A DNA stretch of 64,000 nucleotides, taken from NCBI GenBank assembly GCA_963662465.1, contig OY759599.1, positions 8,032,001-8,096,000 on the forward strand, in the 5' to 3' direction. Below, piece after piece: positions 31,569-62,185 of this stretch; position 1 is the first letter of the stretch, and each line of letters begins with the position of its first letter. A model generated the notes under the pieces. That model did no database searches. It was given only the letters and a program-made list of their open reading frames with translations, and had not been told where the DNA came from. Position numbers and translations under genes: made by a program. Origin of the DNA: Desulfatiglandales bacterium. GTDB lineage: Bacteria; Desulfobacterota; DSM-4660; Desulfatiglandales; Desulfatiglandaceae.

Positions 31569-31569
31569 C

Positions 31570-32697: not shown

Positions 32698-33326
32698 ATC
32701 AGCGTATCAAAGTACTGGTAGTGGATGATGATCCGGACGTGCTTTTTGCCACATCGCGAATCGTCAAATCAGCGGGATATGAGGTGTTAGAAGCTTCCAC
32801 GGGCGCTCAGTGCATGGAAACCGCGCGAGAAATCCGGCCGGATCTTATCCTGCTGGATGTGGTGTTGCCGGATGTGGACGGAACAAAAGTGTGCCGGGAA
32901 ATCAAGTCCGATCCCGCGCTCAAGGCGACTTTTGTGGTCTTGATTTCGGGCGCGAAAACATCCTCTCTTGAGCAAGCAGATGGGCTTGACGTGGGTGCGG
33001 ATGGCTATATCGCACGGCCCATATCCAACCGTGAATTGAAAGCGCGGGTCGATGCCATGGCACGGATCTATATTGCCGAGCAAGAGCGGGATCGACTCAT
33101 TGTCGAACTCAAAGAAGCCCTTTCGAAAGTCAAACTGTTGAGCGGGTTGATTCCCATTTGTGCCAATTGTAAAAAAATACGAGACGACCAGGGATACTGG
33201 AATCGGATTGAAAAGTATATCGGTGAACACTCCAACGCGCAATTTACCCACAGTATCTGTCCGGAATGCGCGAAAAAACTGTATCCGGATTTGGAAATTT
33301 ATGATGATGAGGGCAAGCTTATTTAG
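32694..33326 (+). CDS. Response regulator with C-terminal Cys-rich (PICxxCKKIR...HSICPEC) domain
   Basis: REC domain; LIPICANCKKIRDDQGYW...THSICPEC; ATGA overlap with the HK. Confidence 0.93.
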   Translation: MNQRIKVLVVDDDPDVLFATSRIVKSAGYEVLEASTGAQCMETAREIRPDLILLDVVLPDVDGTKVCREIKSDPALKATFVVLISGAKTSSLEQADGLDVGADGYIARPISNRELKARVDAMARIYIAEQERDRLIVELKEALSKVKLLSGLIPICANCKKIRDDQGYWNRIEKYIGEHSNAQFTHSICPECAKKLYPDLEIYDDEGKLI

Positions 33327-33378
33327 CACGTAAACAGTTTGATCGGCGTTAATCTTCAACAAGGAGAGGGGACTGAAA

Positions 33379-35868: not shown

Positions 35869-36052
35869 GGAGGATGCGAAGATGGAATATGTTTCGAGTG
35901 TCGAAAGAATCGGTTACAAAAAGGGGCCTTGATCATTGTTTCGACCAATGTGGGACACCGTGTTTGGTGTTGTCCGCTTCTAGGGGCGAAAAATTTTTCG
36001 CCCTTTGCAAAATGGCAGAATGAATGATCAAGGCCGATATCGAGAAAAAATA

Positions 36053-38623: not shown

Positions 38624-38720
38624 GGCGCCGTGAATGGTTCCCATAGTAAAGCAGACCGGAAGGGTTGCCGGTCATCGTCAAGCCCTGAGATCTACATTAT
38701 GTTTATGATAGGATGATGTT

Positions 38721-40082: not shown

Positions 40083-41356
40083 TGCAGCAGCCAGTTGGGC
40101 AGCAGCAGCGAAATGGCCGGCACGTAGGTGACTGCCAGCAGGCAAAGGAGCATGATCACCAGAAAGGGCATGACCCCTTGCGCGATGCGGGTAAGCGGTT
40201 TTCCGGTAATGCCCGATGATACGAAAAGATTCAGTCCGAAGGGCGGCGTAAGCATGCCCATTTGAATGTTCAGCACCATGACCACGCCGAAGTGAACCAG
40301 GTCGATGCCGTATCGGTTGAGGGTTTCCAGGAACAGGGGCGCCAGCACCAGCATGGCGCTCACATCATCCATGAAACAGCCCAGAATCAAAAAAAGAATG
40401 TTGACCGTCAGCAGAAACATCCAGGGACTGTGGATGTATTGCATGATGAGGTCGGCCAGCTGGTTGGGGATTTGCTCCGCCGTCAACAGCCAGATGAAGG
40501 TCATGGCGCAGGACAGGATGAACAGCAGGCAGGCGGACAGGATGGCCGCTTCCTGGCAGACGGAGGTCAGGTCCTTGAGACCGAATTCCCGGTATATGAG
40601 CATCTCAACCAGGAGGGCATAGATGACGCTGACGGCGGCCGCTTCCGTGGGGGTGAAGACCCCCGAGTAGATGCCCCCCAGAACGATGATGGGCAACAGG
40701 AGCGCCCAGAATCCCCGTTTTGCCGTTCGGATGATTTCCTTGAGGGATGCCTTTTTTTCGATGCGCCAGTTATGCTTTTTGGCAATCACATAGGTATAGG
40801 CGATGAGGGCCGCGCCGATCAGGAGTCCCGGCAGAACGCCTGCCATAAACATCTCGGCCACGGAGACGTTCATTACCAGACAATAGAGGATCATGGGGAT
40901 GGATGGGGGAATGACAATGCCGAGTGAGCCGGACACGGTAATTAACCCCAGTGAAAATCTTTCGCCGTAGCCCGCCTTGATGAGGGCGGGAATCATGACG
41001 GAGCCGATGGCCACCACCGTTGCCGGAGAAGATCCGGAAATGGCCGCGAAAAAGATACAGGCCAGGACTCCCGCAATGGCCAGGCCCCCCGGAAACCATC
41101 CCACCAGGGCATTGATGAAATCGATCAACCGCCGGGCGATGGCCCCCTTGGTCATGATGCTTCCCGCAACGATGAAAAAGGGGATGGCCAGAAGGACGAA
41201 TTTATCCAGAGCGTTAAACAGTTGCTGGGTCAGAATGTGAAGGGGGGTATTGGAAAACAGATAAAGGGTGACCGTGGTGGTAATGCCCAGGATCACGGCG
41301 ATGGGAACGCCCGCCAGGAGCAACAGCGCAAAGCAGAGGCAGATGGTCAGGGTCAT
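40079..41356 (-). CDS. dctM: TRAP transporter large permease
   Basis: LLAIPFF, AISGSSPA, GIVIPPSI, GVFTPTEAA, TPPFGLNL. Confidence 0.96.
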   Translation of the reverse strand: MTLTICLCFALLLLAGVPIAVILGITTTVTLYLFSNTPLHILTQQLFNALDKFVLLAIPFFIVAGSIMTKGAIARRLIDFINALVGWFPGGLAIAGVLACIFFAAISGSSPATVVAIGSVMIPALIKAGYGERFSLGLITVSGSLGIVIPPSIPMILYCLVMNVSVAEMFMAGVLPGLLIGAALIAYTYVIAKKHNWRIEKKASLKEIIRTAKRGFWALLLPIIVLGGIYSGVFTPTEAAAVSVIYALLVEMLIYREFGLKDLTSVCQEAAILSACLLFILSCAMTFIWLLTAEQIPNQLADLIMQYIHSPWMFLLTVNILFLILGCFMDDVSAMLVLAPLFLETLNRYGIDLVHFGVVMVLNIQMGMLTPPFGLNLFVSSGITGKPLTRIAQGVMPFLVIMLLCLLAVTYVPAISLLLPNWLLH

Positions 41357-41913
41357 GGGGTTGCCTCCCGGGCCGGTTTTCCAGGCCCTTTGGGTTCCAA
41401 TTCCTTGAGAAAATTGACGGCCGCGGTAAAAAACCGAAAGCCCATGACCATGGAAAAAAACGGAATGGGCAGGTAGGCCACGTACATGGGTATCTCCATG
41501 GCCGGGGAGGTGGTTTCGTATCCGTACATGCGGATCACGATTCTCCAGGAATAATAGGCCACGAGTACAAAAAAGAGGGCGGAGAGAATGCTGGTGGCGG
41601 ATTTGAGCAACTGTTGCCAGGGCCGGTTCAGGTGCATAACGATGAGGTCCATGGTGAAATGGCTGCCGGTTTTGACGCCGATGCCGCCACCCAGGAATGC
41701 CACAAATACGCCCAGGTAACGGCCCAGCTCTTCAAACCAGGTGAAGCTGTAGTTGAACAGGTAACGGGCGAACACCTGTATAAACCCGATCAAGGCCAGT
41801 CCCAGAATCGTCCATACCAGGGTGGCTCTTTCAAGTCGATCGATGAAGTGACTTATTTTTTTCAAACCGGCATCCCTCCAGAAGCTGTTAGCCGTTAGCT
41901 TTTCGCTTTTCAA
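41353..41913 (-). CDS. dctQ: TRAP transporter small permease
   Basis: QVFARY, W.EELGRY, HFTMD; four TM helices; start uncertain. Confidence 0.93.
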   Translation of the reverse strand: MKSEKLTANSFWRDAGLKKISHFIDRLERATLVWTILGLALIGFIQVFARYLFNYSFTWFEELGRYLGVFVAFLGGGIGVKTGSHFTMDLIVMHLNRPWQQLLKSATSILSALFFVLVAYYSWRIVIRMYGYETTSPAMEIPMYVAYLPIPFFSMVMGFRFFTAAVNFLKELEPKGPGKPAREATP

Positions 41914-49764: not shown

Positions 49765-50118
49765 GGGGGCGAAACGGTTTCGACGGGGATAACTGAAGCT
49801 TAGATTGCATACCGAGGTTCCGACTGCTCGTTAAACGGTTGGGCGAAACACAAACGCAGACGATTACGCGTATGCTCTAGCCGCATAAATGGCTAGCGTC
49901 TTACCGGTCTTTGCCTGCGAGACCGGATAAGGCGTCGACTAGTAGGCTAGCCGATCCCTTCTACCTGTGAAACGGTGAGGCGAAAATAAATACAGGTTAG
50001 TCTTTGGCCGGCTTGCTCAGTTGCGACCCCAAAGGCGAAGTTTAGATACTGGGCTATGTATGTAGAGATCTGAGTGGAATATTTTCGGACGCGGGTTCGA
50101 CTCCCGCCGCCTCCACCA
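49765..50118 (+). ncRNA. ssrA: tmRNA
   Basis: GGGGGCG/CGCCTCC-ACCA acceptor stem with G3.U, T-arm GGGTTCGACTCCC, tag ORF 49856-49888 (A)ADDYAYALAA*. Confidence 0.98.
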
Positions 50119-50205
50119 ATAATATTTCAAGCAATATCAATAGGTTGAGTCAATAAGGCAACCCCGAAATAGGCGATTGTGCCCAAAATTGTGCCTATTT
50201 TGTGT

Positions 50206-51510
50206 CTAAATCGGTTGTCTTTTTTCATTGGCGGCCTCCATATACTGTCTCTCAAAGGCGGAACCGTCTTGCCTTGTGAGGTTGGGGATATAGCGGCCAT
50301 ACGTTCTGTAGACCATGGAAGTGTCGACGTGCCCCAGGGTTCTGGCTACCCACTCCGGTGTTTCACCGGCCGCCAGCGCCCAGGATGCAAAGGTGTGTCG
50401 GGTTTCATACATACGTCGGTATCTAATGTCCGTTTTCTTCAAAACCCTTGCCCATACTTCCCTGAGCTTATCCTGGAGGATCGGCCTTCCCTCCGTATTT
50501 ACGAACACATACGGGCTATCAAGGTAATGATTTAGTGCCCTTTGCTGCTTCAAACATTTCTTAATGCTCGGCCTGATTTTGATACTCCGTCTGCTTTCTT
50601 CGGTCTTAAGGTCAGACTTTTCTCTGTTGCGCACCCTGCTTAACTCAATATGGATATACTCATTATCAATTGCTTTCCATTTGAGTGCAACCTGCTCAGA
50701 AGGCCTGAGGCCTGTTTGAATCGCGAAATCGAAGTAGGGTTTGTACCAGGGCAGCATGATTTTCATGACCGTTTCCCACTCCTCAAAGCTGAAGGGAAAT
50801 ATCCTGATTTTCCTCACTTTCGGGAGCTTGAGCCTTGAAAATGGATCCGGAAGATCGGTCCAGCCGTATTCATCTATCGCATCTCTTACGATTATCCGCA
50901 ACGGGATCATGACATTCTGAATTGTCTTTCCCGAAATGGGCTGTCCGTACCGGTTTTTCTTGCTCTTGAGATTCGCGACAAATTTTTTCATCCCAACCTT
51001 CGAGCAGATCTCCTTAAAAGATGTATCTTTAAAGTAGGGGAGATGGTGCATTTTGAGAATGGTGGTGTAGTCTTTGACTTGACTGAAATTCATCCCTGGT
51101 TCCATTTCATCCCACCACTTCTTTACATATTCCCCAAATAGCACCTCATCAGGGTCCTTTACGACGTTCTTTCCTTCCAGTATGGCAAAATACGCTTTCT
51201 TTTTGCTGCAAGGAAACCTTTCCGAAAATTCAAATACACCATTTTCAATTTCGGCTACTACGAGATCAAGCTGCTTACGAACGATATTTCGATTGGATGA
51301 GGTGTCTTTCAGACCGGACGGTTCGCGTACACGTTCATCCAGATACCGGAAATCCACCCACAATTTTCCACTACGGCTATAAACCCTTCCTTTTTTTCCC
51401 GCATTTAGCAGACTACGCTTTCTCTTTTTCTCTTCATCCGTGCGGTAACGGGATATTTCGATGACTTTTAATCTTTCCACAAAAAGCCCCCTTTCCGCTT
51501 CTTCAACCAC
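50206..51510 (-). CDS. Tyrosine integrase with N-terminal arm-binding domain
   Basis: TGLRPSE, YETRHTFAS, LGH, YRTY; N-terminal LWVDFRY...VRE. Confidence 0.95.
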   Translation of the reverse strand: MVEEAERGLFVERLKVIEISRYRTDEEKKRKRSLLNAGKKGRVYSRSGKLWVDFRYLDERVREPSGLKDTSSNRNIVRKQLDLVVAEIENGVFEFSERFPCSKKKAYFAILEGKNVVKDPDEVLFGEYVKKWWDEMEPGMNFSQVKDYTTILKMHHLPYFKDTSFKEICSKVGMKKFVANLKSKKNRYGQPISGKTIQNVMIPLRIIVRDAIDEYGWTDLPDPFSRLKLPKVRKIRIFPFSFEEWETVMKIMLPWYKPYFDFAIQTGLRPSEQVALKWKAIDNEYIHIELSRVRNREKSDLKTEESRRSIKIRPSIKKCLKQQRALNHYLDSPYVFVNTEGRPILQDKLREVWARVLKKTDIRYRRMYETRHTFASWALAAGETPEWVARTLGHVDTSMVYRTYGRYIPNLTRQDGSAFERQYMEAANEKRQPI

Positions 51511-51580
51511 CTCCTTTCTGTCCGGATATCACCATAACATGGCTAACACGAACCGGAAGAGGAGGTCAATAGAATAGAGG

Positions 51581-51808
51581 TCATATGTTTATCAAACCCT
51601 TTGGGCGATTGTCTGATCGAGGGTAACCACCGGAATTGCGGTGCAACCATTGTTGAACTTCGCTCCATACAAAAAGAAGTTTTCTGGATGTAGGCTTAAG
51701 ATAATGGACATTCTTTTTGAGTTCATTTTTCCAAACGAGATTCCGGATGGTACCGGGTGCCATCTTTATACGTTCGCTGAGTTCGACTGTGGTAAGATAC
51801 TCTTCCAT
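51581..51808 (-). CDS. Excisionase/AlpA-like HTH protein
   Basis: YLTTVELSERIKMAPGTIRN...LLFVWSEVQQWL; upstream of the integrase. Confidence 0.85.
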   Translation of the reverse strand: MEEYLTTVELSERIKMAPGTIRNLVWKNELKKNVHYLKPTSRKLLFVWSEVQQWLHRNSGGYPRSDNRPKGLINI

Positions 51809-51820
51809 TCCGATGCCTTT

Positions 51821-52897
51821 CTATGAAGAACTGTGTTTACGACCATTAGATTGGATCAGTGCCCGAGGATCTTCCTCAGAAGAAATCTGCTTTTTGCTAT
51901 CCTTCCATTGCCTAACTGAACAGAATACTTCACAAAAAGGCTCTATGGCTGCACTGCTACAACCATACCCTGAATATGAACTTTTAAAGGCATATGATGT
52001 CTGGGCCAAGATCTCCGACTCATGGATGACCTCTTTTCCATTGATAGGTCTGTTCTTCAATGCCCATGTCTTAAGCGCCGCTACTGCCATATCGTAGGGC
52101 AGACCCAGTCTCTTTAGATGTACTGCAAGCCTAAAACACCCAACCCTCTGGTATTGGGAAACGCCGTCCTTAAGAATCCTGACCGCACAAGGCGGAAGAG
52201 CGAATGTGCCCTCACCGGTCTTTTGTGAGGAGTGCTCCGAAGACAAGACCTCTTTTTTGGCCGATAGCTCGTTGAGCTCAATTACCTCATCCAGAACCCG
52301 TTCACTGGATCGCTCTACCGATTCAAGAAAGCTCCACTGGTCAGGGTATGGGCTAAACTCTGCGGGTTCTACAAAAGCGGTTTTCCCTTGGAGGACGAGC
52401 GGGCCGAACAAAGGGGCATTAATGAAATTGCCGTAGCGCATATCACCGCCCAGTTTGTCCTGCTTGGGGAATATCTCTGTTTGGGGCAGTTCGATTTCTT
52501 CGAGAATATGTTGCGCTACCATCCGTGCTTTGAGTGCCTGAACTCCATTTTCATCAAAAAAGATCCATACATGGTAGCCTTTCGATTTGCTGGCCTCGAC
52601 ATAGGCGGAAAGCCCATAATGCTTCGCCCTGCCGACAAATTCCGATGGTGCGGTACGGTCTTTTGTATCAAAATCAACGGCGATGGCTCGGGTTCGATCC
52701 TTGACCAGGAGGTACACTCCGTACGGTTGTTTCCCGGTAAGATGGGCCAGAAGCACCTCGTTCGTAACCGGTTCTTTCACCTGTCTTGCCCGGGCGGTTT
52801 TGAGATCATATGTTCCGTAGACGTTGCTAAGCCCGGAAAAACACGATCTGAAAATCGCCACCTTTTCTGTGTTCGTCCTTTTGCTGGTTGTGTCCAT
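51821..52897 (-). CDS. Archaeo-eukaryotic primase (AEP) with Cys-rich PriL-like C-terminal domain
   Basis: AVDFD (DxD), SKSKGYHVW, GNFINAP; C-terminal LPPC...GC....FC...C. Confidence 0.85.
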   Translation of the reverse strand: MDTTSKRTNTEKVAIFRSCFSGLSNVYGTYDLKTARARQVKEPVTNEVLLAHLTGKQPYGVYLLVKDRTRAIAVDFDTKDRTAPSEFVGRAKHYGLSAYVEASKSKGYHVWIFFDENGVQALKARMVAQHILEEIELPQTEIFPKQDKLGGDMRYGNFINAPLFGPLVLQGKTAFVEPAEFSPYPDQWSFLESVERSSERVLDEVIELNELSAKKEVLSSEHSSQKTGEGTFALPPCAVRILKDGVSQYQRVGCFRLAVHLKRLGLPYDMAVAALKTWALKNRPINGKEVIHESEILAQTSYAFKSSYSGYGCSSAAIEPFCEVFCSVRQWKDSKKQISSEEDPRALIQSNGRKHSSS

Positions 52898-52998
52898 TTT
52901 CTCCTCCGCTCAGTGAAAAGGCCTGAACGAACCTCCCTAACAGGAAGGTTCAAAGCTTTCACCACATTAAGCGGATGAAAAAAGGGATGCATTTCACC

Positions 52999-53574
52999 CT
53001 AAAGAGAGTTTTTAATGAAATACCATAAATGATGTGCCAGTCGGGATGGATTCAAGGCGAGCAAATCAGGGGGAAAGAATTCTGTATTTCGTTTCCGATA
53101 AACAGCCGCGATACGCAGTTTGGCATTCCAGTCCAGTTGGTCAACATTGTCGATGAAAACCCACTCCATATACTTTTCCCTCTCAACCTCCTTTATGGAT
53201 TCTGCCAATCGGGACAATATCAGCTCCATTCCCTCCAGTTTGGTGTCAGAGGCATCCATGAGCGCCACATCATAACCATCGTCGTGAGCGCCCGGGTAAT
53301 TTTTTCTGAGCAGGGAAACGGCCTCGGCAAGGGCCTCTTCGGTGGAAAGGTGTCGGGGAAGGCGAAGCCCGGTCTTGTAGACGTGGGAAACAAACCTGCC
53401 GATTATTCTATTGAAGTCACAATGGGAACAACCTTCTTCGGTCTCCCATCGAAATGCCTGTGCCGCCTGATCGATGGGGTCATCAATTTCATTAGCCATC
53501 TGTTTTCCATCGAGGAGCATCATGATGGCATCGATGGCCTTGTCTGCCGAATGATCGGTATCAGAACTCCTCAT
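52999..53574 (-). CDS. Hypothetical helical protein (unnamed domain, copy 1)
   Basis: GAGGAG SD + ATG at 53574; aligns by eye with the C-terminal part of 55780-57336 and the N-terminus of 53561-55756. Confidence 0.8.
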   Translation of the reverse strand: MRSSDTDHSADKAIDAIMMLLDGKQMANEIDDPIDQAAQAFRWETEEGCSHCDFNRIIGRFVSHVYKTGLRLPRHLSTEEALAEAVSLLRKNYPGAHDDGYDVALMDASDTKLEGMELILSRLAESIKEVEREKYMEWVFIDNVDQLDWNAKLRIAAVYRKRNTEFFPPDLLALNPSRLAHHLWYFIKNSL

Positions 53575-55756
53575 AGGTGAACTCCTCGGGTGCTTCACTT
53601 TGGACAGGGGTCAAAGGACTATGGTGGAGATCCCAACGCCGGTTCCTTTGCCGGATGAGATCACGGACCACATGCACCGGTTTGTAATATTGCCTGTAGG
53701 AGCGCTCTATAATGGCATCTCTAAAATGTCGCTCGGGAATTTCCAGAGGGCCGGACAACTCCACCTTTACGATGTCTATTCCGATACGGGCGACTGCCTG
53801 GCCAAGTTTTAGATTTACGAGGTCATCGCTTCGAACAAGGCCGTTAAGGTCCTTGGTCAAATAGCGGGCATCTTTACCGTCCACATTCATGATGATGGTC
53901 GTACCCACGCTGGATAAGGCGTCAATCTTCTTGGTGCCAAACTGGCTGAGGTAATGATGGGCCAAGGTAAGGCTGGCATTGAATTTTCTCGTCTCGGAAA
54001 TGAGGTCTTCCATTGCGGGGGTCAGGAAGCGATGGGCCTCATCTACATGAAGAAAAAACTGTTTACGTTCTTTTTCCTTGGTGTCACTCCGGCCCAAGGC
54101 GGCAAGATGGAAAAGCGATAAAATAAAACACCCCAGTATCTCCCGGACTTCTGAGCCTATGGTGGAAAGGTCTACCAGAAAAATCATTCCTTCGTCCATG
54201 ATCCGACGAAAATCGATGACGTTCTCCGGCTGGGACAGCATCAGGGCGACCGTGCCGGAGACGAGAAGCTTGCTCAGTTTATGTTTTGGAGGGCCAAGGG
54301 CCTCGTTGGAATAATTCAGGAAATCCTCTTGCCAGAATCGGAGGGCGGTCTGGTTATCCACCACCTTGATGATCTCTTTGCGGAGCCGCTCGCTCTCTTC
54401 GCTCCCGCGGCGAAGAAGGTCAGACAGATCCAAAAGAGTGCTGCCGGGTAGCTGAAGAAGGGCATAGAGGCCGTGCCTGAGCAGGTGCTCTAATCGATCC
54501 CCCCATCCCGTAACCACGCTCTTGAACGCAGCCACAATGTCATCTGCGGTACGGGTTACATCCTGCCCGCGATTTCTCTTGAGACAGTTCCACAAAGGAA
54601 CATGATCATGGTTTCCGGGATCAAAGTAGATCGTTTTTTCAACATGCTCTTCCTTTATCAGGCAAAGAAGATCTTCAATAAGGTCTCCATGGGGATCCAG
54701 CACGGCCACACCCATCCCCTTGTCAATGTCGTCTAATATCATTCGAGCCATGGTGGTGGATTTGGCGGTTCCGGGCCTGCCAATGATGTGGGTGGAACGG
54801 GAACGAGACATAAGGGGCATGCAGACCGGGGATTCAACCCCCGCATACTCGCATGTTCCGATAAGCGTGCCCTTATGGAGAGCGATATTTCGTACAGGGA
54901 GCGTTTCAAGGATGTCCATCGGCGCTTCCCGATATTCCAGGATTCCAACCGGAGGAATGTGTACAAGTCCGGCAAGCTCTGCAGAGTTGACAAGGAAGCC
55001 GGGACGATACGTCACGCCCAAGAGAAACATATCCATGATCCTTTCACTGGAGATAACCCTGCGGTATTGTGTATCGGTGATGGATTCAAGGGGACGACCG
55101 CCGTGCTGGAATACGCTCAAAAATGTAGAGATTGCCTTGAGATAGAAATCCCCAAATTCCTTCCCTGATATCATTCCCACTCGGATCGCAGCAGAATAGA
55201 AGGGTTTATCGTTGTGGGCTTTACATTCAACATCCTTGGCCATTTCCCGCAAATCCCCGGATGGCGCCTGCTGAAGGTGTTTTTGAGGGGTCTGAAGGCC
55301 GTTTAACAACTTGAGTGAATATTCCAGATCCAGAAGACTTTCCACATTCTGGTGCCAGCAGTGCTCAGGCCTGACGGGTTGCAGGAGTGCTTGATAAAAT
55401 CCAATCCCCGGAGGTTTTATTTCCATGAGGGCGGCGATCAGCGGTTTATAAGAGGAAACCTGGATTTCATCCGGTTGTGTAAGAATGATGTTTCCACCCT
55501 GACGTCTATATTCTTTCTCTAATATTTCCTTTGCCCGTCCCGCGGCCTCGGTGCGGGACATAACTCCCCCATGTACCACACACAGGCTGAAGTGGTAGCT
55601 GAAATAGTCGGCAATCACGTTGGTAAACTCGTCAAAATCTCCGACCGTGTTCTTGCTGAGAGAGAAATGCACGCGCGCTTCGTCGTGAGAATTCGTGACA
55701 TTCTTGGCAATTGCCAGCTCATCCAATGCTGCCACAAGGCTTTCCAATGATCCCAT
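53561..55756 (-). CDS. VirD4/TraD/HerA-FtsK-superfamily ATPase with fused N-terminal half-copy of the unnamed domain
   Basis: HIIGRPGTAKST (Walker A variant), VLDPHGDL, LHVDEAH (Walker B), RKFNASLTLAHHYLSQ. Confidence 0.85.
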   Translation of the reverse strand: MGSLESLVAALDELAIAKNVTNSHDEARVHFSLSKNTVGDFDEFTNVIADYFSYHFSLCVVHGGVMSRTEAAGRAKEILEKEYRRQGGNIILTQPDEIQVSSYKPLIAALMEIKPPGIGFYQALLQPVRPEHCWHQNVESLLDLEYSLKLLNGLQTPQKHLQQAPSGDLREMAKDVECKAHNDKPFYSAAIRVGMISGKEFGDFYLKAISTFLSVFQHGGRPLESITDTQYRRVISSERIMDMFLLGVTYRPGFLVNSAELAGLVHIPPVGILEYREAPMDILETLPVRNIALHKGTLIGTCEYAGVESPVCMPLMSRSRSTHIIGRPGTAKSTTMARMILDDIDKGMGVAVLDPHGDLIEDLLCLIKEEHVEKTIYFDPGNHDHVPLWNCLKRNRGQDVTRTADDIVAAFKSVVTGWGDRLEHLLRHGLYALLQLPGSTLLDLSDLLRRGSEESERLRKEIIKVVDNQTALRFWQEDFLNYSNEALGPPKHKLSKLLVSGTVALMLSQPENVIDFRRIMDEGMIFLVDLSTIGSEVREILGCFILSLFHLAALGRSDTKEKERKQFFLHVDEAHRFLTPAMEDLISETRKFNASLTLAHHYLSQFGTKKIDALSSVGTTIIMNVDGKDARYLTKDLNGLVRSDDLVNLKLGQAVARIGIDIVKVELSGPLEIPERHFRDAIIERSYRQYYKPVHVVRDLIRQRNRRWDLHHSPLTPVQSEAPEEFTYEEF

Positions 55757-55779
55757 GTATCCCCCCCTTTTTTATGTCC

Positions 55780-57336
55780 TTAGAGTGTTTTCAGCAGTTC
55801 CGAAACCCTGTCTAACGATTCCATATAGTAGAGTATAACCTCTTCCCAATGGAACGAAAGCTGTTCTGGCGATTTCCCCCTGAGGTCGACTGGCAGTTGC
55901 GGCCCTATCCGTTCCATAAAGACCTTCATTAACCTGATTTTTGCATCCTGGTCAAGAGGGTCTATTGAAACTTTGAGCACCATACCAGTGTGGTTTTTCA
56001 TTTTCTCGTGCTTCAAGTGTTCCGTCATGGAGTCAAACACCAGGCGCATTCCCCCGTTAATGCCGTGCTTTCCCTCTGCCAGTGCGGCATTGTACCCTCC
56101 TTTGCGTGCAAAAGCGGCTCTTACCAGTTCAATTGCCTCAGAAGCAAGAGCACTCCTCTTGAGGCTCCCTTCAGGCGAGCCGATGTGCCGGAAAATATGG
56201 CCATAAAAGGAGGTAATTGCATCGTTGAATGTGAAGCCGTCTTTGACCGTAACGGAATCAGGGGCATAACTGCCCCGGGCATTGTCGAAAGGGTGCCCGA
56301 TCTTTTTGGCCAGGTTTTCTTTGCTTAGTTCTGCCAGGAGCCTTTCAAAAAGCGCGTTTTCCGTGTCATGTTCATGCGATTCGGCGGCGCTGGCTGCATT
56401 GATTGCAAAAGGCCGCTCGCCAAAACCGTCACCAAACAAGGCCTTGTAGAGCTTCCGAACATCCTCTATATCATTTTTTTTGGCATGTTGTGTCAGCTGG
56501 ATACAAAACTCAGGTGAAACCAGTGGAAACAGGTCATCTAACGTTCGTGTGGAGGGAGGCAGGGAAACAACCAGTCGAAATAGTTGTTCACCGAAACGCT
56601 CGGGATAGCTCTGATTTTTGAGGTGAAAATCAACGTAGGCTTGGAGCAGCAGCCGGCCATTTTCGACCATACGATTCATAAGGGACCGCCCCAGGGCATC
56701 CCAGAACCTCTTTTCGTTTCCCTCAACAAACATGCCAACTGTCCTGCCTATGGGGTCTTGGGCCTCTCCGGGAGGGGTCTTCAAACCAAAAAAACCGGTC
56801 TTTAAGCTGCCGAGCACAATGGATGAATCTGTGGCGAAAATCCTCAAGGCATCGGACACATCACCCAAGGGGTAGATCTTTAAATCTCCTTTGTGACGGA
56901 GCAGACTCTCTTTTGCGGATTGATATTCAATTGGCGTCAGGACCTGTAAGGATCGGTCCATTTCAAGTTCCGGAAAGGCCTCGGCCTCCTTTTTAATGCG
57001 CTCATATTCCGCATTCCAATGGGGAATGCTCCTGAATGTGCTTATCAGGGTTTCCTCCTGTTCTTCATTGCCTGTGAACGTATCGGTGGCCAGATCATAG
57101 AGTAAACCGTAGATTACGTCCCTGATTTGTTGTATCCCCTGGTCGGCCCTTACACCGGATGGTTTGAGAGCGGCCCTGGTAAATTCCATGAACTGGCGAA
57201 AACCTTCTAAATATTCCGGTTGGCTGCCGAGTTCTCTGATCTCCTCGAAAGCGTCATCCATTGCGTCTCTTGTATTTACGTTGTTAAGGGCACGAGCAAT
57301 TATCGGAATAAAGTACAAATCCTTGTTATTTGTCAT
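55780..57336 (-). CDS. Hypothetical protein, C-terminal unnamed domain (copy 3)
   Basis: 518-aa ORF from ATG 57336 with purine-rich SD, co-oriented with the module. Confidence 0.8.
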   Translation of the reverse strand: MTNNKDLYFIPIIARALNNVNTRDAMDDAFEEIRELGSQPEYLEGFRQFMEFTRAALKPSGVRADQGIQQIRDVIYGLLYDLATDTFTGNEEQEETLISTFRSIPHWNAEYERIKKEAEAFPELEMDRSLQVLTPIEYQSAKESLLRHKGDLKIYPLGDVSDALRIFATDSSIVLGSLKTGFFGLKTPPGEAQDPIGRTVGMFVEGNEKRFWDALGRSLMNRMVENGRLLLQAYVDFHLKNQSYPERFGEQLFRLVVSLPPSTRTLDDLFPLVSPEFCIQLTQHAKKNDIEDVRKLYKALFGDGFGERPFAINAASAAESHEHDTENALFERLLAELSKENLAKKIGHPFDNARGSYAPDSVTVKDGFTFNDAITSFYGHIFRHIGSPEGSLKRSALASEAIELVRAAFARKGGYNAALAEGKHGINGGMRLVFDSMTEHLKHEKMKNHTGMVLKVSIDPLDQDAKIRLMKVFMERIGPQLPVDLRGKSPEQLSFHWEEVILYYMESLDRVSELLKTL

Positions 57337-57418
57337 TCCCTGAGCCCCTTTCACGTTCAATAAGATCCAGTACCTCTTCCAAACCGCCTGCAACACCGGA
57401 AGAGAGAACTGTTTCCAC

Positions 57419-57532
57419 ACCGTATCCACCATCTTACAGAGAGAGGCCTATATCGGGACCATGGTCTACAACAAGGTCAGCAAGGTCCCGGGCACCGAAA
57501 AAAGAAAGAGAAATCCGGAATCAGAATGGGTG
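57419..57532 (+). pseudogene. Large serine recombinase fragment
   Basis: TVSTILQREAYIGTMVYNK...KRNPESEWV matches the IL.N..Y.G..YNK...NP..EW recombinase-domain motif. Confidence 0.65.
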
Positions 57533-57638
57533 AATGGGATTGTTTACGAATCAACCTCCGGAGGATTGTTTCGCACGAAAAATTCAGGGGCCTGAATTGT
57601 TAGTGCAACAACAAAAAAATAACCGCGTAATCTGTGAA

Positions 57639-57988
57639 ATGCGCCTGTCGGAGATGCCGCTAAGCGGTGCCCCGTTAAATTGGTGGAACCACAGCGTATT
57701 TATCTGGGGTGCCAAGAAAAGCATCAAGAGGGCAATGGCCGCTGAGTGCAGCCGGAAACTGGGCTGTAAGGCCAAGCAGGAAACCCAACGACGATGTCGA
57801 CCTCTAAAAGATGGTGAAAGCCTTTAAGCAGGATTGCAGAAAATGGGCGATGGACCTTCTTTAACAACAGCGGAATCGGGATTCCCTGTGCATGCCTTAC
57901 GACAAGAGTATCGGGAGAGCCGTACAGTGGAAATCTCTACCTACGGTTCGACGAGGACCTCGGGATTAAACCCCCGAGGTTACTCTAC
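57639..57988 (+). mobile_element. ORF-less/internally deleted group II intron
   Basis: Domain V GAGCCGTACAGTGGAAATCTCTACCTACGGTTC (57917-57949); domain VI hairpin ACCTCGG...CCGAGGT with bulged A and TACTCTAC end; 5' ATGCGCC (GTGCG variant, boundary less sure). Confidence 0.8.
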
Positions 57989-58025
57989 CGGTTCACACAA
58001 CTAAATCCCTTTTTGCTTCTACCTG

Positions 58026-58061
58026 CCCCGTGAAACCGTTGTTGCAGTTGTTTCACTGGGG
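58026..58061. repeat. REP-like hairpin
   Basis: CCCCGTGAAAC...GTTTCACTGGGG inverted repeat. Confidence 0.6.
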
Positions 58062-58472
58062 TTTAACCGGGGTGCCAGAAACCCCTTGTCGTTAATAACC
58101 GGGTACAGACCTCAACATAACAACCACCAAGAGTCAACGGCAGATTTGACCCCATGCCCTTTGATGCACATCCCAAGGTCACTGAAGGTGTAAAACCACG
58201 ACCCGGCATCGAGTGGCAGGTGACTTCAATATAAGGACGTTATAACCAACACCCAAATAACGGCAATAAGGAAGGCCTGACCCCATCATCACAACCCTCT
58301 AACGCATCCAAATCCGTGTAACCCAAAGGGCGGAGCTGTCTTCAAGATTTGACTGCAAAACAAAACCAAAAACCGTGTCATCCGTGAAATCCGCGCCAAA
58401 AAAACTAAAGAAACCACCAACGTCCCCTGCACCAATTTGTGTTTCCGCTTTTCACATATGAGGTAACCAGTC

Positions 58473-58697
58473 ATGAAAAGTCGCATCTTTGATAAACATT
58501 TTCCGACGATTCTTGGGGCAGGCAGTGTAATGGAAATCTGGCCAACGGAAAATTATGATCGTTATATGCCAGACCCTATTCCGGCAAATAGCCTCAAGGG
58601 ATATTGGATGAACGTTAACTCGTACGTGTGCAAAGGCATTGTGCAATATGAGTTGGATTGCCATACCAGACTAGCCGAAAGTCTAAATGATGAATAA
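58473..58697 (+). CDS. Small hypothetical protein
   Basis: GAGGT SD, 74 aa, fills one inter-motif spacer; GAGSVMEIWP..Y...W..V pattern recalls small partners of DUF2335 genes. Confidence 0.6.
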   Translation: MKSRIFDKHFPTILGAGSVMEIWPTENYDRYMPDPIPANSLKGYWMNVNSYVCKGIVQYELDCHTRLAESLNDE

Positions 58698-58747
58698 TAA
58701 GCGAAGCCTGACCCCCTAATTTTATGGTCTCGTCCCCCTACCTTTCC

Positions 58748-58808
58748 GAATACGAACTGAAGAAGAGGGAGTTTAGGGATCGTACGAAAAGGTACGCTTC
58801 GGCTGTTA
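58748..58808 (+). pseudogene. Four-helix-bundle (23S IVP-like) protein N-terminal fragment
   Basis: ELKKREFRDRTKRYASAV, bounded by motifs on both sides. Confidence 0.5.
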
Positions 58809-58940
58809 GTGCCAACGTTCCCCATTACTCCCCAAATGACAAAGAGAGCAAAATACCCTCAGTCCATGAGAAATGCAGTTGCGTAGCAACGTCCCCCATT
58901 CCACAGACCTCAGGAAATTGGGAACCGCTATAAAAATCTG

Positions 58941-58969
58941 TTGTCATTTTGGCGTCATTAATTTATCCT
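58941..58969 (+). promoter_or_regulatory. sigma70-type promoter of the TA operon
   Basis: TTGTCA-17 bp-TATCCT, then AGGAGG SD. Confidence 0.6.
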
Positions 58970-58989
58970 GTTTGTAAAGAAGGAGGTGT

Positions 58990-59280
58990 ATGATGACGCT
59001 GAACAAAACAGAAGAAAGAATTCCTGCCCGAATGCCCCATGAGGTTTACGAGCGAATTGTTGCGGCTGCCCATACTGTCGGAGCCACACTGAACCAGTTT
59101 CTTGTTCAGGCGGCTATTGACAAAGCGAATGAAATTCTGGAAAGGGAGCGCATTATTTCTCTTACTTCAAAAGACGCAGATACGCTTTTTCATCTGATCG
59201 ATAATCCGCCTGAACCGAATGATCATCTCAAAGCAATTATGAATCAGAGAGAGGCAGAGGCGCTTTTGTGCCGGAAATAG
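58990..59280 (+). CDS. DUF1778 (TacA-like) RHH antitoxin
   Basis: RIPARM...I..AA...GATLNQFLVQAA...ISLT..D...F..IDNPPEPN. Confidence 0.92.
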   Translation: MMTLNKTEERIPARMPHEVYERIVAAAHTVGATLNQFLVQAAIDKANEILERERIISLTSKDADTLFHLIDNPPEPNDHLKAIMNQREAEALLCRK

Positions 59281-59771
59281 GTTCTCTTTTTCGCCATCAT
59301 GACCGGGCCGGATTTGATTGCGGAGTTCCAGCACTGAACGGTTTTCTCAAGTTCACGGCCAGGCAGCATGGTGATAAAGGGATTTCACGCACATTTGTTT
59401 TAACCGGGCCGGAAAACCCATCCATCATTCTGGGCTATTTTACACTGACACTCTGTGAAGTCAAAACAGAACATCTTCCAGCCTTATATGCCAGGAAATT
59501 TCCGAAACACGGGCTTCCAGCCGTTCGACTGGCCCGCCTGGCCGTTGACACGCGATTTCAGGGTCGTGGATATGGTGGACGTCTTCTTGCCGAAGCGATC
59601 CATCGGACGGTTTTGATTGCGGAACATGCAGGCGTGATTGGACTGTTTGTGGATGCGAAAGATGAAACTGCCTGTCTGTTTTATCAACGGTATGATTTTA
59701 AGTCTCTTCCGGACAATATCCGGAAATTGTTTCTGCCGATTGAAACCCTACGAAAAGGGTCCCTGCGATAA
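59268..59771 (+). CDS. GNAT acetyltransferase toxin (TacT/AtaT-like)
   Basis: HDRAGFDCG, LGYFTL, PAVRLARLAVD..FQGRGYG, VDAKDE.A..FY. Confidence 0.93.
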   Translation: MPEIGSLFRHHDRAGFDCGVPALNGFLKFTARQHGDKGISRTFVLTGPENPSIILGYFTLTLCEVKTEHLPALYARKFPKHGLPAVRLARLAVDTRFQGRGYGGRLLAEAIHRTVLIAEHAGVIGLFVDAKDETACLFYQRYDFKSLPDNIRKLFLPIETLRKGSLR

Positions 59772-59789
59772 CTTCAAAAAGAAGGACCC

Positions 59790-59952
59790 GGAAGCCATCA
59801 GGAAGAACCCGGAAAAGTTCCCGGCAGATTTTATATTCGAGTTGAACGAAAAGGAACAGGATTTTTTAAGGTCGAAAATTTCGACCATAAAGACAGGAAG
59901 GGGCAAGCACGGAAAATTTGCCACAAAGGCTTTCGCGGAACAAGGCATTTGA
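59790..59952 (+). pseudogene. ORF6N DNA-binding domain fragment
   Basis: AIRKNPEKFPADFIFELN...LRSKIST...GRG...AFAEQGI; lacks N- and C-termini. Confidence 0.8.
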
Positions 59953-60270
59953 TATTCGACAAAGGAAAAACAGGCGCGGTATGGAAAACACGGCAAATAG
60001 AAATATGAGAGAAACGCAAGAACGCATGGGCGTCCCCAAGGGCCCCAGAATATGCTGGTCAGCTGGGTGAGATCCATGCCCTGGGTTTATAATGCGTGCC
60101 CTAATCAAGTCCTTAACCCCTAAATCTTAAATCCTAATAACCACAATAAATAAACCCTGACCCCCTAATAAAAAATCCGTGTAATCCGTGAAATCCGCGC
60201 CAAAAAAAGAAAAAACAGTCATCCCCAACCCCAATAACGACAATAAAGAAAGCCTGACCCCCTGATTGTT

Positions 60271-60480
60271 ATGACCCATGTCGCAGGTTTTCCATTTTCC
60301 ATCGTGAACTTTCACAGTATTTATGCCGCGCCCAAAGATTATCTCCTGGAACTGGCCGGCAGACAGAACCTACGCATTCGGCTTCGGCCGCCATACCGGG
60401 AAAACCTGTCGCAGGCCTTTGGCAAGTATTTTATGCGTGTTGGGCTTCCTCTGGATATTCGAGCGTTTGCTCGCAGTTAG
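60271..60480 (+). pseudogene. C-terminal fragment of a hypothetical protein
   Basis: RIRLRPPYRENLSQAFGKYFMRVGLP looks like a conserved C-terminus; fills exactly one inter-motif spacer; no SD. Confidence 0.55.
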
Positions 60481-60547
60481 ATAGGATGTCCCCATTATAA
60501 TACAAGCGTAAACTAGTGAAACAAGCAACGTCCCCCATTATTTTTTT

Positions 60548-61288
60548 GACAGGTTCGAAATAGTTACATTCAAGTATCCAGTCGAATGTTGTACTTTGAC
60601 CTCCACCTCTCAGATTTATAGGAATTTCCTTTAAGTAGCCATTTACTATTATTTTTGTGCCAGGGCATGACCTCTTTTCAGATATTGGCGATATAAGGTC
60701 TTGTTTTAAGAAAATTTTCATTTTTTTTGGTTGTTCACCACCGTCAAGGGTTTCAATATCTTCTTCAATCGTCATATGTTGGGCATCTATCAATTCTTTA
60801 GAAAGCATTTTGAATTTACCCTTACGCCCACATCCACATCTTGAAGGCTCTCTAAATTTCTGTTCAAGTTGAAGAAGTGGTATGATATTTCCACATGAAG
60901 GGCATTCAAATTTTGATGTTACAACTTGAGGTCTAATGTCGCTTTTTTGTCGAATAGTTCCTTGAACACAAATGAATTTTTCTAAATGTTTGCTTCGTAA
61001 GTCTCTGATTCGCTTTTTCTGACTTTTTGGAATATTTTTAATCCTTACAATTACTTCAATATTATTTTTGATAGCGAGATCAAATAATGAAATTGATATA
61101 CTTACTGCCTTAAGGGATTCCTCAGGATTTTCAATCAGGTCTTCTGCTAAATTGATATTCTGTTTTGATATTTCATTAAAATCCATAACGAAATATCTAT
61201 CCCCTTTTCTTACAGATTCTATAAGGGTGTCATAATAGAGGATTTCTATTAATTTTCTGTATTCACCTATTTGTTCTTGGGTTTCCAT
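60548..61288 (-). pseudogene. mcm: Archaeal-type MCM helicase, N-terminal domain only (truncated before the AAA+ domain)
   Basis: DF..IS...LAEDLIENPEE, IRDLRSKHL, GTIRQKSDIRPQV, zinc finger FECPSCG...RCGCG, DAQ...EE...GGEQPK, PG.KI.V.G; similarity stops at NYFEPV, then reads through the repeat motif. Confidence 0.9.
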
Positions 61289-62034
61289 TGTATAATTTGT
61301 TTAGGAGATAATTTTCTATAGCATTCTTTATGCAGAAATACTCCATTGTACACTTCTGAATAATCTTTTGAGTCTTTGTGAATAGGGCGCTTACATTTAG
61401 CACAGTCACCTATCTTGTTTTTTTCTATATCAGCATCTTCATTGATTTCTCCGATTTTAGATTTGTATATTTTATTGAAAGAGATTTTTCTTCTTTCGAT
61501 ATTCGCATAGTCACTTTGATAAAGATATTTGCCATATATCTCATCTAAGAATTGTTCAACAACTGGTTTGAAATCATCAGAGAGTTTGAATAGTTTTGTT
61601 TTTTTATAACTTCTTTTGCCATTTGGATGAATCATATTCCATGTTTCTCTTATAGCTTTATTCTCATTAGAGTCTTCATGCAATTCTTCAACAATATTCT
61701 TCGTTTCAAAGTGAAATAATAAATCTCTTAGGTCTTTGCCATAACCTAGATTGAAATGCATTGTTAGTTCCCAAAGGCTTGAGACTCCAACGTTATATAG
61801 GACATAAACTAATTTGCTTTTCGTTTTATCAAGGAATATAGAAAGGATATCTCTGAAGTTTCTTTCAAAATTCAGATTTATATTTTGATCATTATGGATT
61901 TCGAGTTTTGAGACAAAATCACAGATTACACATACCCTTCTCTGAAATTTGTTTTCAGTGGGTGTGATTGTTGCCACCTCTTTCAAATTTATCCGGCCTT
62001 GCAGAGAAATCAGTAATTTCTTCAGGATCAACAA
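61267..62034 (-). CDS. Hypothetical AT-rich protein, possible winged helix plus C-terminal CxxC...HxxC zinc finger
   Basis: Long ORF overlapping the mcm start; CAKC...HKEC; start uncertain. Confidence 0.7.
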   Translation of the reverse strand: MLILKKLLISLQGRINLKEVATITPTENKFQRRVCVICDFVSKLEIHNDQNINLNFERNFRDILSIFLDKTKSKLVYVLYNVGVSSLWELTMHFNLGYGKDLRDLLFHFETKNIVEELHEDSNENKAIRETWNMIHPNGKRSYKKTKLFKLSDDFKPVVEQFLDEIYGKYLYQSDYANIERRKISFNKIYKSKIGEINEDADIEKNKIGDCAKCKRPIHKDSKDYSEVYNGVFLHKECYRKLSPKQIIQWKPKNK

Positions 62035-62185
62035 GCCAAATGAAATTAGATCCTTTTATGAATAGTTTATTATCTGAAGTAATATTTTTTAGAATTCCGA
62101 TTGCTTTTCTTTTATTCTTTCTTTCAGCAACAACAAACATTCCTATAAAGTTTCTGTACTGCTCAACTAAACTATCATTTGTCAA
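61955..62185 (-). CDS. Small hypothetical protein (possible Sm/SH3-like beta barrel)
   Basis: GAGGTG SD before TTG; FIG..V.......GIL..I pattern. Confidence 0.55.
   Translation of the reverse strand: MTNDSLVEQYRNFIGMFVVAERKNKRKAIGILKNITSDNKLFIKGSNFIWLVDPEEITDFSARPDKFERGGNNHTH

Follow-up and report, generated by a model that had tools for sequence, protein, structure and literature searches.

Co-oriented C-run motifs in a Desulfatiglandales genomic island as probable stacked ends of TIRYT-type Y1 transposons

Co-oriented motifs at the start of an ssrA island

We analyzed a 64,000-nucleotide stretch of DNA (the window), comprising positions 8,032,001–8,096,000 of the 8.16-Mb single-contig genome (G000) of a Desulfatiglandales bacterium, and focused on window positions 58147–60548, where short motifs with a run of C residues separate genes and fragments of genes. 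These motifs are very probably the ends of TIRYT-type Y1 transposons and of their derivatives that lack an open reading frame (ORF), such that the window holds a small head-to-tail stack of right ends together with cargo, with the enzyme encoded elsewhere. The stack lies within the initial 12 kb of an island at ssrA, the transfer-messenger RNA (tmRNA) gene, where a related island is integrated in tandem with it. As an explanation of the whole, we favor, with a little more confidence than doubt, the stacking of Y1/HUH transposon ends (TIRYT, "TIRtrons") by a polar, one-ended transposition that is targeted at such ends.

Two types of motif make up the stack. The B motif has the form CAACGT(T)CCCCCATT and lies at 58419, 58814, 58888, and 60527, and weaker cores that resemble it lie at 58731, 60031, 60215, and 60488; in a repeat search, the B sites fell into two families, with members at 58402, 60012, and 60510 and at 58811, 58885, and 60524, respectively. 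The A motif (..AATAAC.ACAATAA......CCTGACCCCC), which is the sister terminus of B, forms a 40-nt repeat family at 58250, 58681, 60130, and 60227. The preliminary description of this region had counted about 13 co-oriented C-run motifs in 2.4 kb, and we indeed found 14 on the plus strand and none on the minus strand of the 2402-bp region, where 0.33 per strand would be expected from the genome density; the combined motif pattern was drawn up post hoc, after inspection of the region, and its P value is illustrative only. The motif CTGACCCC occurs seven times in the window (2.16 copies expected by chance; none of 100 shuffles reached seven), and four of these copies, all on the plus strand, lie within the region at 58277, 58708, 60157, and 60254. 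For AACGTYCCCC with at most one mismatch, the nine copies in the window represent no overall excess over the 9.9 expected; all three exact copies and one copy with a single mismatch lie on the plus strand inside the region (58419, 58814, 58888, and 60527).

We also looked for inverted pairs of repetitive extragenic palindromic (REP) sequences and for a background frequency of the motifs, which proved to be non-palindromic, all direct, and denser than expected. Their spacing is variable, with a minimum of 22 bp and a maximum above 1 kb, and the repeats are of two types; a CRISPR array was rejected on both grounds.

The transposase gene and its right end

In agreement with the earlier statement that the responsible enzyme is not visible in the window, we found no Y1 gene in the 64 kb. 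A linked gene was sought outside the window and was found in a larger array of the same motifs near 7.0 Mb of the same genome. This array contains three Y1_Tnp genes, two of them with a Bac_DnaA_C domain: an intact gene for 360 amino acids (aa) with this domain at 7,013,342–7,014,421, an intact gene for 256 aa at 7,018,206, and a frameshifted gene at 7,038,220. The Pfam matches have E values of 3.5e-13 (Y1_Tnp) and 3.2e-10 (Bac_DnaA_C, at aa 276–339), and the best NCBIfam model is REP_Tyr_transpos (REP-associated tyrosine transposase, RAYT), with 71.9 bits, under its cut-off of 80. The NHxH and RY motifs are invariant across a nine-sequence alignment of the enzyme. A profile built from these nine sequences gave weak matches in the PDB to DnaA domain IV (2hcb/1l8q; E 0.0017), to TnpA-REP of E. 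coli (4er8; E 0.041), and to an entry named just "TRANSPOSASE" (2xm3; E 0.14), which we take to be ISDra2 TnpA; phmmer with the single 360-aa sequence found no PDB match at E values up to 0.01.

The B motif (CAACGTCCCCCATTAC; ACGT(T)CCCC) starts 5–26 nt past the stop codon in 12 of the 19 orthologs that have a C terminus and enough flanking sequence, and one more ortholog has TGACCCC. The motif, which had been read as the junction scar of repeated insertions, is therefore the transposon's own right end. Upstream of the gene, B is present in inverted orientation, which is the classical arrangement of terminal inverted repeats (TIRs), in 3 of 22 orthologs, all distant ones, and in direct orientation in another 3 of the 22, which are close ones. 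Among 91 distinct 24-mers located 5' of B, 31% score at least 5 for tandem repeats of 7–10 nt (mostly 8 nt), compared with 4–5% of shuffled or random sequences, and such iteron-like families, for example GAATAGTG GAATAGTG, are common to several genera. At the other end of the intact gene, tandem 9-mers (WAATCCTGT) and an A-run lie directly 5' of the start codon. From left to right, a full element hence consists of short tandem repeats (9-mers of the form WAATCCKGT and an A-run), the start codon, the RAYT-like Y1 gene with a helix-turn-helix (HTH) of the DnaA domain IV type, and, 5–26 nt past the stop codon, two tandem 8-nt iteron-like repeats followed by the invariant 14-nt core ACGTCCCCCATTAC (B). 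The order of 9-mers, A-run, TIRYT ATG, stop codon, and B is seen at the intact gene at 7,013,301–7,014,437. We would guess that the 9-mers or the 8-mers are what the DnaA-type HTH recognizes, because of their position, the tandem periodicity of 8–9 nt, and the tetranucleotide ATCC that the 9-mers would have in common with the DnaA box, which we presume to contain it. The consensus DnaA box as printed in one passage of Quentin et al. (2018, PMC6006769) is TT[AT]TNCACA.

Such enzymes and their ends have a published counterpart. TIRYT genes are described as flanked by TIRs that share GGGGWSAS (Di Nocera et al. 2013, PMC3733652), and RAYT-like proteins with a C terminus of the Bac_DnaA_C type are classified as subclass 2.1.2, in which the C-terminal HTH is Bac_DnaA_C, HTH_23, or HTH_28, within subclass 2.1, the TIRYTs; where Quentin et al. 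(PMC6006769) treat subclass 2.1, they report finding no REP-like sequences near its genes. The preliminary description had pointed to a link between GGGG(A/T)CA-type repeats and RAYTs, which, given the published consensus of the terminal repeats (PMC3733652, PMC6006769), was the right lead. Read on the other strand, the A motif is GGGGTCAG, which fits GGGGWSAS. Moreover, the genome contains a second TIRYT family, with four near-identical 337-aa genes (at 1,356,868; 1,433,345; 4,146,516; and 7,803,799) that are flanked by 25-bp inverted repeats (GGGGACGTTCGTCAGATTATAAGTT) and accompanied by about a dozen doublets of the same repeat resembling miniature inverted-repeat transposable elements (MITEs); this set looks like an active classical TIRtron family.

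Could the motifs be regulatory instead, with B (and its upstream repeats) and the 9-mer block serving as promoter or operator for a sigma factor or repressor of the island, and co-oriented because the genes are? CGTC, which is contained in B, is a common −10 element of promoters of the extracytoplasmic function (ECF) type, some B sites lie 16–45 nt 5' of a start codon, and the 9-mer block with its A-run stands directly 5' of TIRYT starts and, in the relative G004, directly 5' of an unrelated gene's ribosome-binding site. We nevertheless consider this improbable, since the positions of B past the transposase stop codon and as an inverted terminal repeat are unlike those of a promoter. Further, truncated genes begin 10–17 nt past a motif at arbitrary codons, the last B of the stack faces a gene on the opposite strand, and an ORF starts on the same strand within 80 nt at just about one-fifth of the B sites.

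Arrays of B cores in the genome and in relatives

Genome-wide, AACGTCCCCCATT has 16 copies, 15 on the plus and 1 on the minus strand. Cores of the B type are clustered on the plus strand at 6,998,120–7,085,889 and on the minus strand at 7,090,018–7,108,010, and they also occur in both ssrA islands; approximately 41 B-type sites lie in 6.997–7.090 Mb, at a median interval of 821 bp. The orientation flips within the 7.0–7.1-Mb region and within the islands (plus at 8.09–8.115 Mb, minus at 8.149–8.157 Mb). The 7.0-Mb region is rich in small ORFs, and 18 of the 88 ORFs scanned there match families of the toxin-antitoxin (TA) type. An element with three to four tyrosine recombinase genes in a row lies inside this array (7,044,335–7,052,715) and again at 280,861–286,833.

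A longer array is found in G113, a genome from another genus of the same family. In 100 kb of its approximately 120-kb array, B cores number 78 on one strand versus 1 on the opposite strand, A-like motifs 20 versus 2, and repeat blocks 17 versus 1. The 12-mer ACGTCCCCCATT has 77 copies in this genome, compared with none for a reversed control, and 62 of them lie on one strand of 1,277,899–1,398,473. Across the class, nine of 209 genomes, from three families, have at least 9 copies of the 12-mer (G000, 21; G113, 77; G056, 31; G074, 22; G189, 18; G183, 16; G133, 13; G094, 9; and G116, 9), where controls mostly have 0–3, and the copies are co-oriented within a contig (e.g. 14 of 14 in contig C22 of G183). 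Among five close relatives that were checked for the exact B 12-mer, the same-genus genomes G004, G010, and G005 have just 0–2 copies; the exact core is therefore not genus-wide. In a 16-mer scan of species-representative genomes (596 Gb), contigs with multiple matches came from Desulfobacterales, Desulfobacteraceae, Thermodesulfobacteriota, and "Deltaproteobacteria" metagenome-assembled genomes alone, and single matches in other taxa were at the level expected by chance for 596 Gb.

Long arrays of this kind call to mind an unusual integron, or a cluster of attC sites lacking an integron integrase (CALIN), in which the units would be divergent attC sites used by one of the genome's integron integrases or by another tyrosine recombinase. 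The genome does contain at least five intI genes above the NCBIfam cut-off, and the arrays, like chromosomal integrons, are rich in small ORFs and TA pairs. This explanation is nonetheless very hard to credit. The repeat search of the region found no short-range inverted repeats, both strands of the units fold worse than shuffled sequences (z +0.5 to +1.9), and R''/R' pairs (RYYYAAC..GTTRRRY) number 0 in the region compared with 0.69 per kb beside a real intI. The intI genes compared by coordinate lie approximately 110 kb from the stack in the window, and their distance from the 7.0-Mb array is 150 kb or more; the Phage_integrase (PF00589) match nearest to the G113 array is approximately 200 kb away. 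With neither palindromes nor R''/R' boxes, and with no integron integrase near the arrays, the attC reading was rejected, and the earlier view that the locus is neither an integron nor a CRISPR array stands, given also its variable spacer length.

Junctions, duplicated fragments, and polarity of truncation

The breakpoints of genes had been said to coincide with motifs. This holds for many of them, for example those of a 69-aa ORF and of an mcm-like gene in the window, whereas others are remote from the motifs. Where two B sites have a common left flank, their sequences diverge 5–13 nt after the G of GTCCCC, and where two have a common right flank, they do so 2–4 nt before this G; recombination therefore occurred somewhere within the common core. 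Long shared segments begin 12–24 nt past the core. Several fragments that adjoin B duplicate sequence that is present elsewhere: a 110-bp piece of an ATPase gene matches the intact gene at 7033477 at every position (100% identity), an 841-bp piece that begins inside a PDDEXK_3 gene has an intact copy at 7064617 (96.8% identity), and the same base of a 1404-bp segment (99.8%) adjoins two different B-type ends, with an A-like TCCGACCCC as the segment's other end. Whole motif-to-motif units were also compared between genomes, and one proved to be shared: an 817-bp TA unit with B at both ends is common to G113 and G000 at 89% identity.

The truncation of transposase genes is polar. Among the 16 transposase loci in the 100 kb of G113, four are full-length, 10 are 5'-truncated copies that retain the 3' end and B, none is a 5' part only, and two are internal fragments. 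The fragments start 10–13 nt (once 24 nt) past a B core at arbitrary codons. Among the 10 5'-truncated copies, five begin directly after another terminus, and a sixth copy flagged in this respect lacks 44 codons only.

We are close to evenly divided over the mechanism that seems likeliest to us, drawn by analogy, in which a polar, replicative, one-ended transposition of the IS91 kind proceeds from B and lands beside an existing end. In IS91, as described in PMC13181058, oriIS lies behind tnpA, and failure of terIS together with a bottom-strand circle leads to one-ended transposition. By this analogy, the B core would act like oriIS, with the Y1 enzyme nicking one strand there or just beside it, and a copy would be made polarly, in a rolling-circle-like course leftwards through the transposase gene. 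Copying would halt at a variable point, with an early halt yielding 5'-truncated copies and a late one carrying upstream genes along, and the copy would be attached directly to the 3' side of a B or A terminus already in place. Each new copy would bring its own terminus and so regenerate the target, by which co-oriented arrays might grow.

A further step, which we hold to be possible and on the doubtful side, is that the arrays are a platform for gene accretion that is run by a Y1/HUH enzyme and not by a tyrosine recombinase or Cas1-Cas2. In such a platform, the invariant ACGTCCCCCATTAC and the variable 8-nt iteron-like repeats would work as the nick site of a replication origin, the DnaA-type domain would read the tandem 9-mers, and each round would place a polar copy of the DNA upstream of one end behind another end. 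The cargo may have been actively captured, or it may merely have been trapped.

The arrays may instead be a passive graveyard, in which MITE-like mini-elements and full elements inserted repeatedly into the intergenic DNA of a TA-rich island, favoring each other's ends, and in which later deletions beside these ends truncated the neighboring genes, with nothing captured or moved as cargo; we think this unlikely, though it deserves serious attention. Cargo-free units of the form "9-mers ... A" and "9-mers ... B" do exist and are hugely repeated in two metagenomes (see below), a 39-nt element remnant just after the 9-mers sets the island copies apart, which amounts to decay by deletion, and some breakpoints, as noted, are remote from motifs. 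However, simple insertion leaves both halves of a gene, yet G113 has 10 3'-end fragments and no 5'-only fragment. In addition, the fragments adjoining B duplicate sequence that is intact elsewhere (100% and 96.8% identity), and a TA unit with B on both sides is common to different genera.

Several observations weigh against stacking by polar, end-targeted transposition, and some of them against the assignment of the ends. One PIN gene has breaks at 7005684 and 52305, neither of them near a terminus, and the right end of the 841-bp copy is not at a motif. Homology endpoints are only modestly enriched near B (33 of 1133 within 15 bp, with 12.9 expected and a maximum of 23), and the within-genome endpoints stem mostly from insertion sequences and tandem repeats. 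As the cores do not differ from one another, the junctions do not reveal the exact cut site. On the other strand, the B core reads GGGGACGT, which departs from GGGGWSAS at two positions (7–8). The 9-mers are upstream of the gene in just 4 of 22 orthologs, G113 having repeats of the CTGAC type there instead, and at locus L039 of G004, the block lies directly 5' of the ribosome-binding site of an ordinary gene, so it may simply be a promoter. Gene orientation is moderately biased to the motif strand (73 versus 38 and 83 versus 55, for ORFs of at least 80 aa from a crude ORF caller). A TIRYT gene is absent from the window and from the island, which has only fragments of one TIRYT type (8,109,545–8,109,765); activity here would therefore be in trans, or past. 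Finally, the accessible parts of PMC3733652 and PMC6006769 report no biochemistry, substrate, or mechanism for TIRYTs.

Contents of the stack

The spacers had been described as foreign DNA. A large part of the DNA between the motifs, however, is transposon debris and ORF-less mini-elements, which keep the order of the full element without the transposase gene and which parse as "9-mers ... terminus". The first of these in the window, at 58310–58428 (plus strand, as for all features of the stack unless stated), consists of AATCCGTG 9-mers, an A-run, a short iteron-like stretch, and a B terminus (AACGTCCCC). The second, at 60172–60266, consists of a 9-mer block (60172–60213), a degenerate B (60215–60225), and the fourth A copy (60227–60266). 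The two have in common a 42-nt block of AATCCGTG repeats and an A-run (58368 and 60172). The order of 9-mers followed by A is also found at locus L038 of the same-genus relative G005.

At the left border of the stack, a sequence read as its first C-run motif (TTGACCCC, 58146–58153) lies inside a conserved stretch of 26–38 nt. This stretch (58122–58159) is 91–96% identical in G003, G004, G009, G011, G013, G016, G024, and G037, which belong to several genera, and in its own genome it is limited to the two island copies; it includes a small hairpin (GTCAA..TTGAC) and then CCCC. The first A copy (..CAATAA..CCTGACCCC), a right-end terminus of the A type, follows at 58250–58289. A 74-aa ORF had been noted, and it is present as cargo at 58473–58697, ending 10 nt before the motif of the second A copy at 58708 (the 40-nt repeat of which spans 58681–58720). 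Next come a B-like core read from the sequence (CGTCCCCC, 58731–58738), which is counted among the 14, and two B copies supported by both the repeat family and the motif search, at 58811–58826 (GCCAACGTTCCCCATT) and 58885–58900 (AGCAACGTCCCCCATT).

The intact TA operon and the ORF6N piece of the preliminary description were borne out by Pfam. The TA pair (58990–59771) is cargo composed of a TacA-like antitoxin at 58990–59280 (TacA1, E 2.5e-18) and a GNAT toxin at 59268–59771 (Acetyltransf_7, E 5.7e-8). The ORF6N fragment at 59791–59949 (E 1.5e-8) covers positions 30–80 of the 86 profile positions, and full-length ORF6N genes (177–182 aa) are present in the 7.0-Mb array. A B-type terminus of the "GAAACGCA..GCATGGGCGTCCCC" family lies at 60012–60037, with further members at 7061450 and 7087650 and in G113, and the third A copy lies at 60130–60169.

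Past the second mini-element, a 69-aa ORF (60271–60480) corresponds, as had been suspected, to an orphan C-terminal fragment: it comprises the last approximately 65 aa of a protein of approximately 200 aa, for which five relatives have frames of 192–271 aa, and its homology starts from aa 6 of the query (approximately 60280), so that the 5'-truncated gene (60280–60480) begins 17 nt past the A motif. This gene is followed by a B copy read from the sequence (GGATGTCCCCATTATA, 60484–60499) and by the last B, which is part of a 37-nt module of an iteron-like stretch and CAACGTCCCCCATTA (60504–60540). This module is 97% identical to 7039457–7039493, and the flanks of the two differ on both sides. 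An mcm gene had been said to be broken near the last motif, and its homology indeed ends at the edge of the last B. The truncated mcm-like gene (60541–61288, minus strand) retains the N-terminal and OB domains only (Pfam MCM_OB, E 7e-24); its alignments to solved MCM structures in the PDB, whose chains have 595–692 aa, stop at aa 249–254 (60526–60541). The DNA of this gene, which adjoins the last B, is AT-rich (GC 0.30–0.41). No Pfam or NCBIfam family matched the 74-aa ORF, either of two 69-aa ORFs, or a 550-aa ORF.

To the left of the stack, a hairpin (CCCCGTGAAAC...GTTTCACTGGGG) lies at 58022–58062 on the plus strand; elsewhere in the genome, it appears as an optional insert of approximately 36 nt that separates the 9-mer block from the start codon of a TIRYT gene. 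It is also found 3' of 9-mers at genome positions 52857, 7038172 (directly 5' of a TIRYT ATG), and 7083983, and short copies exist in the relatives G010 and G016. A further family of hairpins that share these ends (CCCCGTGAAAT...ATTTCACCGGGG), followed by tandem repeats of the CTGAC type in a REP-like pattern, was observed at 7,069,350 and 8,123,781. Farther left, a segment resembling domains V and VI of group II introns lies at 57915–57988 on the plus strand (Rfam RF00029; 35.3 bits compared with a gathering score of 40, E 0.00019). At E values up to 1, Rfam returned for 57000–61000 this sub-threshold match and two presumed chance matches, and there is no reverse transcriptase ORF near the intron-like segment (approximately 57500–57990).

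The island and its tandem copy

The tmRNA gene at window positions 49765–50118 is the only Rfam match in the whole window at the gathering threshold. A segment of 12,025 bp that begins 27 nt short of the 3' end of this gene (window 50092–62116) has a second copy at genome positions 29,146–41,170 with 99.99% identity, and an incomplete 3' end of the tmRNA gene recurs at 29,046–29,172; the region is therefore placed in one of two tandem ssrA islands. The island starts with genes for a tyrosine integrase, an archaeo-eukaryotic primase (AEP), and a TrwB/HerA-like ATPase. Past the first 12 kb, the two islands are 94–99% alike, with replaced segments. Exactly where the 12-kb identity stops (window 62116), the other copy has a 630-bp element of the IS200 type (Y1_Tnp; four copies in the genome) at 41,170–41,800. 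A 4.6-kb element with a ParB/KorB-like gene extends from window 62473 through 64000 and on to genome position 8,099,087, and it is 99.6% identical to 6,813,482–6,818,096; it is missing from the second island copy and is therefore a recent insertion. Both islands also contain a tandem array of approximately 105-bp units (genome 85,876–88,975 and 8,147,570–8,149,128), seen as staggered BLAST matches.

Units of the stack in public metagenomes

The comparison with public metagenomes rests on assembled contigs. In two metagenomes from different studies, the pieces 58455–58698, 58931–59861, 59779–60044, and 60279–60540 were present at 95–100% identity as separate contigs that stop near motifs. Contigs with the 74-aa ORF (95–99% identity) end near motifs, the TA pair is covered by contigs of 58931–59716 (one mismatch) and 58931–59861, other contigs end at 60044, and those with the 5'-truncated gene match from 60279. 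The bin of the second mini-element (60172–60266) has a summed contig depth of 3490–4667 in the two metagenomes, compared with approximately 10–50 for most other bins; mini-elements are therefore highly repeated in those communities. Joints between motif copies were set aside as evidence of excision, as their sides are short (20–32 letters) and probably represent repeat copies of other organisms. Nor was any weight given to missing coverage to the right of 60540–60720 in run X4. In run X3, a second sample with the same organism, a contig joins 61010 back to 60071 at 2–4 times the depth of its neighbors, which could reflect a tandem duplication, a circle across the last motifs and part of the mcm-like gene, or an effect of the assembly graph.

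Implications

TIRYT, or subclass 2.1, RAYT-like enzymes are common (homologs of the 360-aa enzyme occur in 123 of the 151 genomes of the order), and the family is little studied. Our analysis defines a candidate substrate for it, comprising the invariant 14-nt core, the strain-variable tandem 8-mers, and the 9-mers by the gene start, together with a signature of polarity and a set of natural arrays; cleavage, binding, and mobility are therefore directly testable. If end-targeted polar copying with cargo takes place, it would constitute a second route, beside integrons, by which small genes such as TA modules are stacked and exchanged, and it would be a bacterial parallel to the capture of gene fragments by eukaryotic Helitrons. 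If the arrays moreover act as an accretion platform, bacteria of this order would build and shuffle 100-kb libraries of TA and defense-type genes by single-strand copy-and-paste. For annotation, such regions should not be named integrons or CALINs, and the "orphan" ORFs inside them are often fragments.

Comparison with known systems

The enzyme family and its GGGG-ended repeats are already known. What appears to be new is the direct orientation of the ends, their stacking with cargo over up to 120 kb, the combination of an invariant 14-nt core with variable tandem 8-mers, and the polar truncation. We found no description in the literature that we searched of direct, cargo-bearing arrays of up to 120 kb; the supplements of PMC3733652 (the lists for Figure 9 and additional files 4–5) and of PMC6006769 might show clustered direct repeats.

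The closest relatives are the TIRtrons themselves. As in TIRYTs, the enzyme is a RAYT-like Y1/HUH protein with a C-terminal HTH of the Bac_DnaA_C type, the GGGG is on the outer side of the terminal repeats (A being GGGGTCAG), and repeats also occur alone, paired, or grouped; classical members, the 337-aa family, are present in the same genome. Unlike in TIRYTs, the ends are direct (14 versus 0 in the window, 78 versus 1 in G113) and follow each other head to tail over 2–120 kb with cargo and fragments, the transposase is truncated with a polarity, and the right end has tandem 8-nt repeats before an invariant 14-nt core.

With IS91 and ISCR elements, the present elements have in common that the enzyme is of the HUH type and that the two ends are unlike. 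In both, the initiating end follows the transposase gene on its 3' side, beside a short target-like sequence that is required, the other end is often missed, such that neighboring DNA is mobilized, and no target duplication is visible. Here, the constant end lies 5–26 nt past the stop codon and the other end varies (10 5'-truncated copies versus no 3'-truncated copy). The differences are a small RAYT-like Y1 enzyme, a lack of subterminal palindromes, and insertion that is apparently aimed at the end of an existing copy.

IS200/IS605 elements likewise have a Y1 enzyme, both ends on one strand and thus direct, insertion 3' of a short specific sequence, and many ORF-less derivatives, which are known as PATEs. 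The present elements differ in having an extra HTH domain, in that their own end seems to be the target, and in lacking subterminal hairpins; the sole hairpin to set against those of IS200/IS605 is the optional one at 58022–58062, which is near some left ends only. REP sequences, their mosaic elements (BIMEs), and REPIN-RAYT systems are similar in having an enzyme related to RAYT and short repeats that are both dispersed and clustered, whereas the repeats here are non-palindromic, have no GTAG tag, and bound genes. The REPIN-RAYT enzyme is a single conserved (domesticated) copy, and the enzyme here is multi-copy and often broken.

Integron cassette arrays and CALINs resemble the present arrays in their length and co-orientation, in having sites approximately 0.6–0.8 kb apart, in their small ORFs and TA pairs, and in units common to several genomes; they differ in that the present arrays have no attC hairpins, no integrase, many units that are gene fragments, and a weak bias of gene orientation. 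Helitrons, whose constant end and polarity are opposite to those found here, are eukaryotic and use a RepHel enzyme. As described in PMC4778049, they are nonetheless HUH transposons that pick up fragments of unrelated genes and yield chimeric arrays, in which they are like the elements stacked here.

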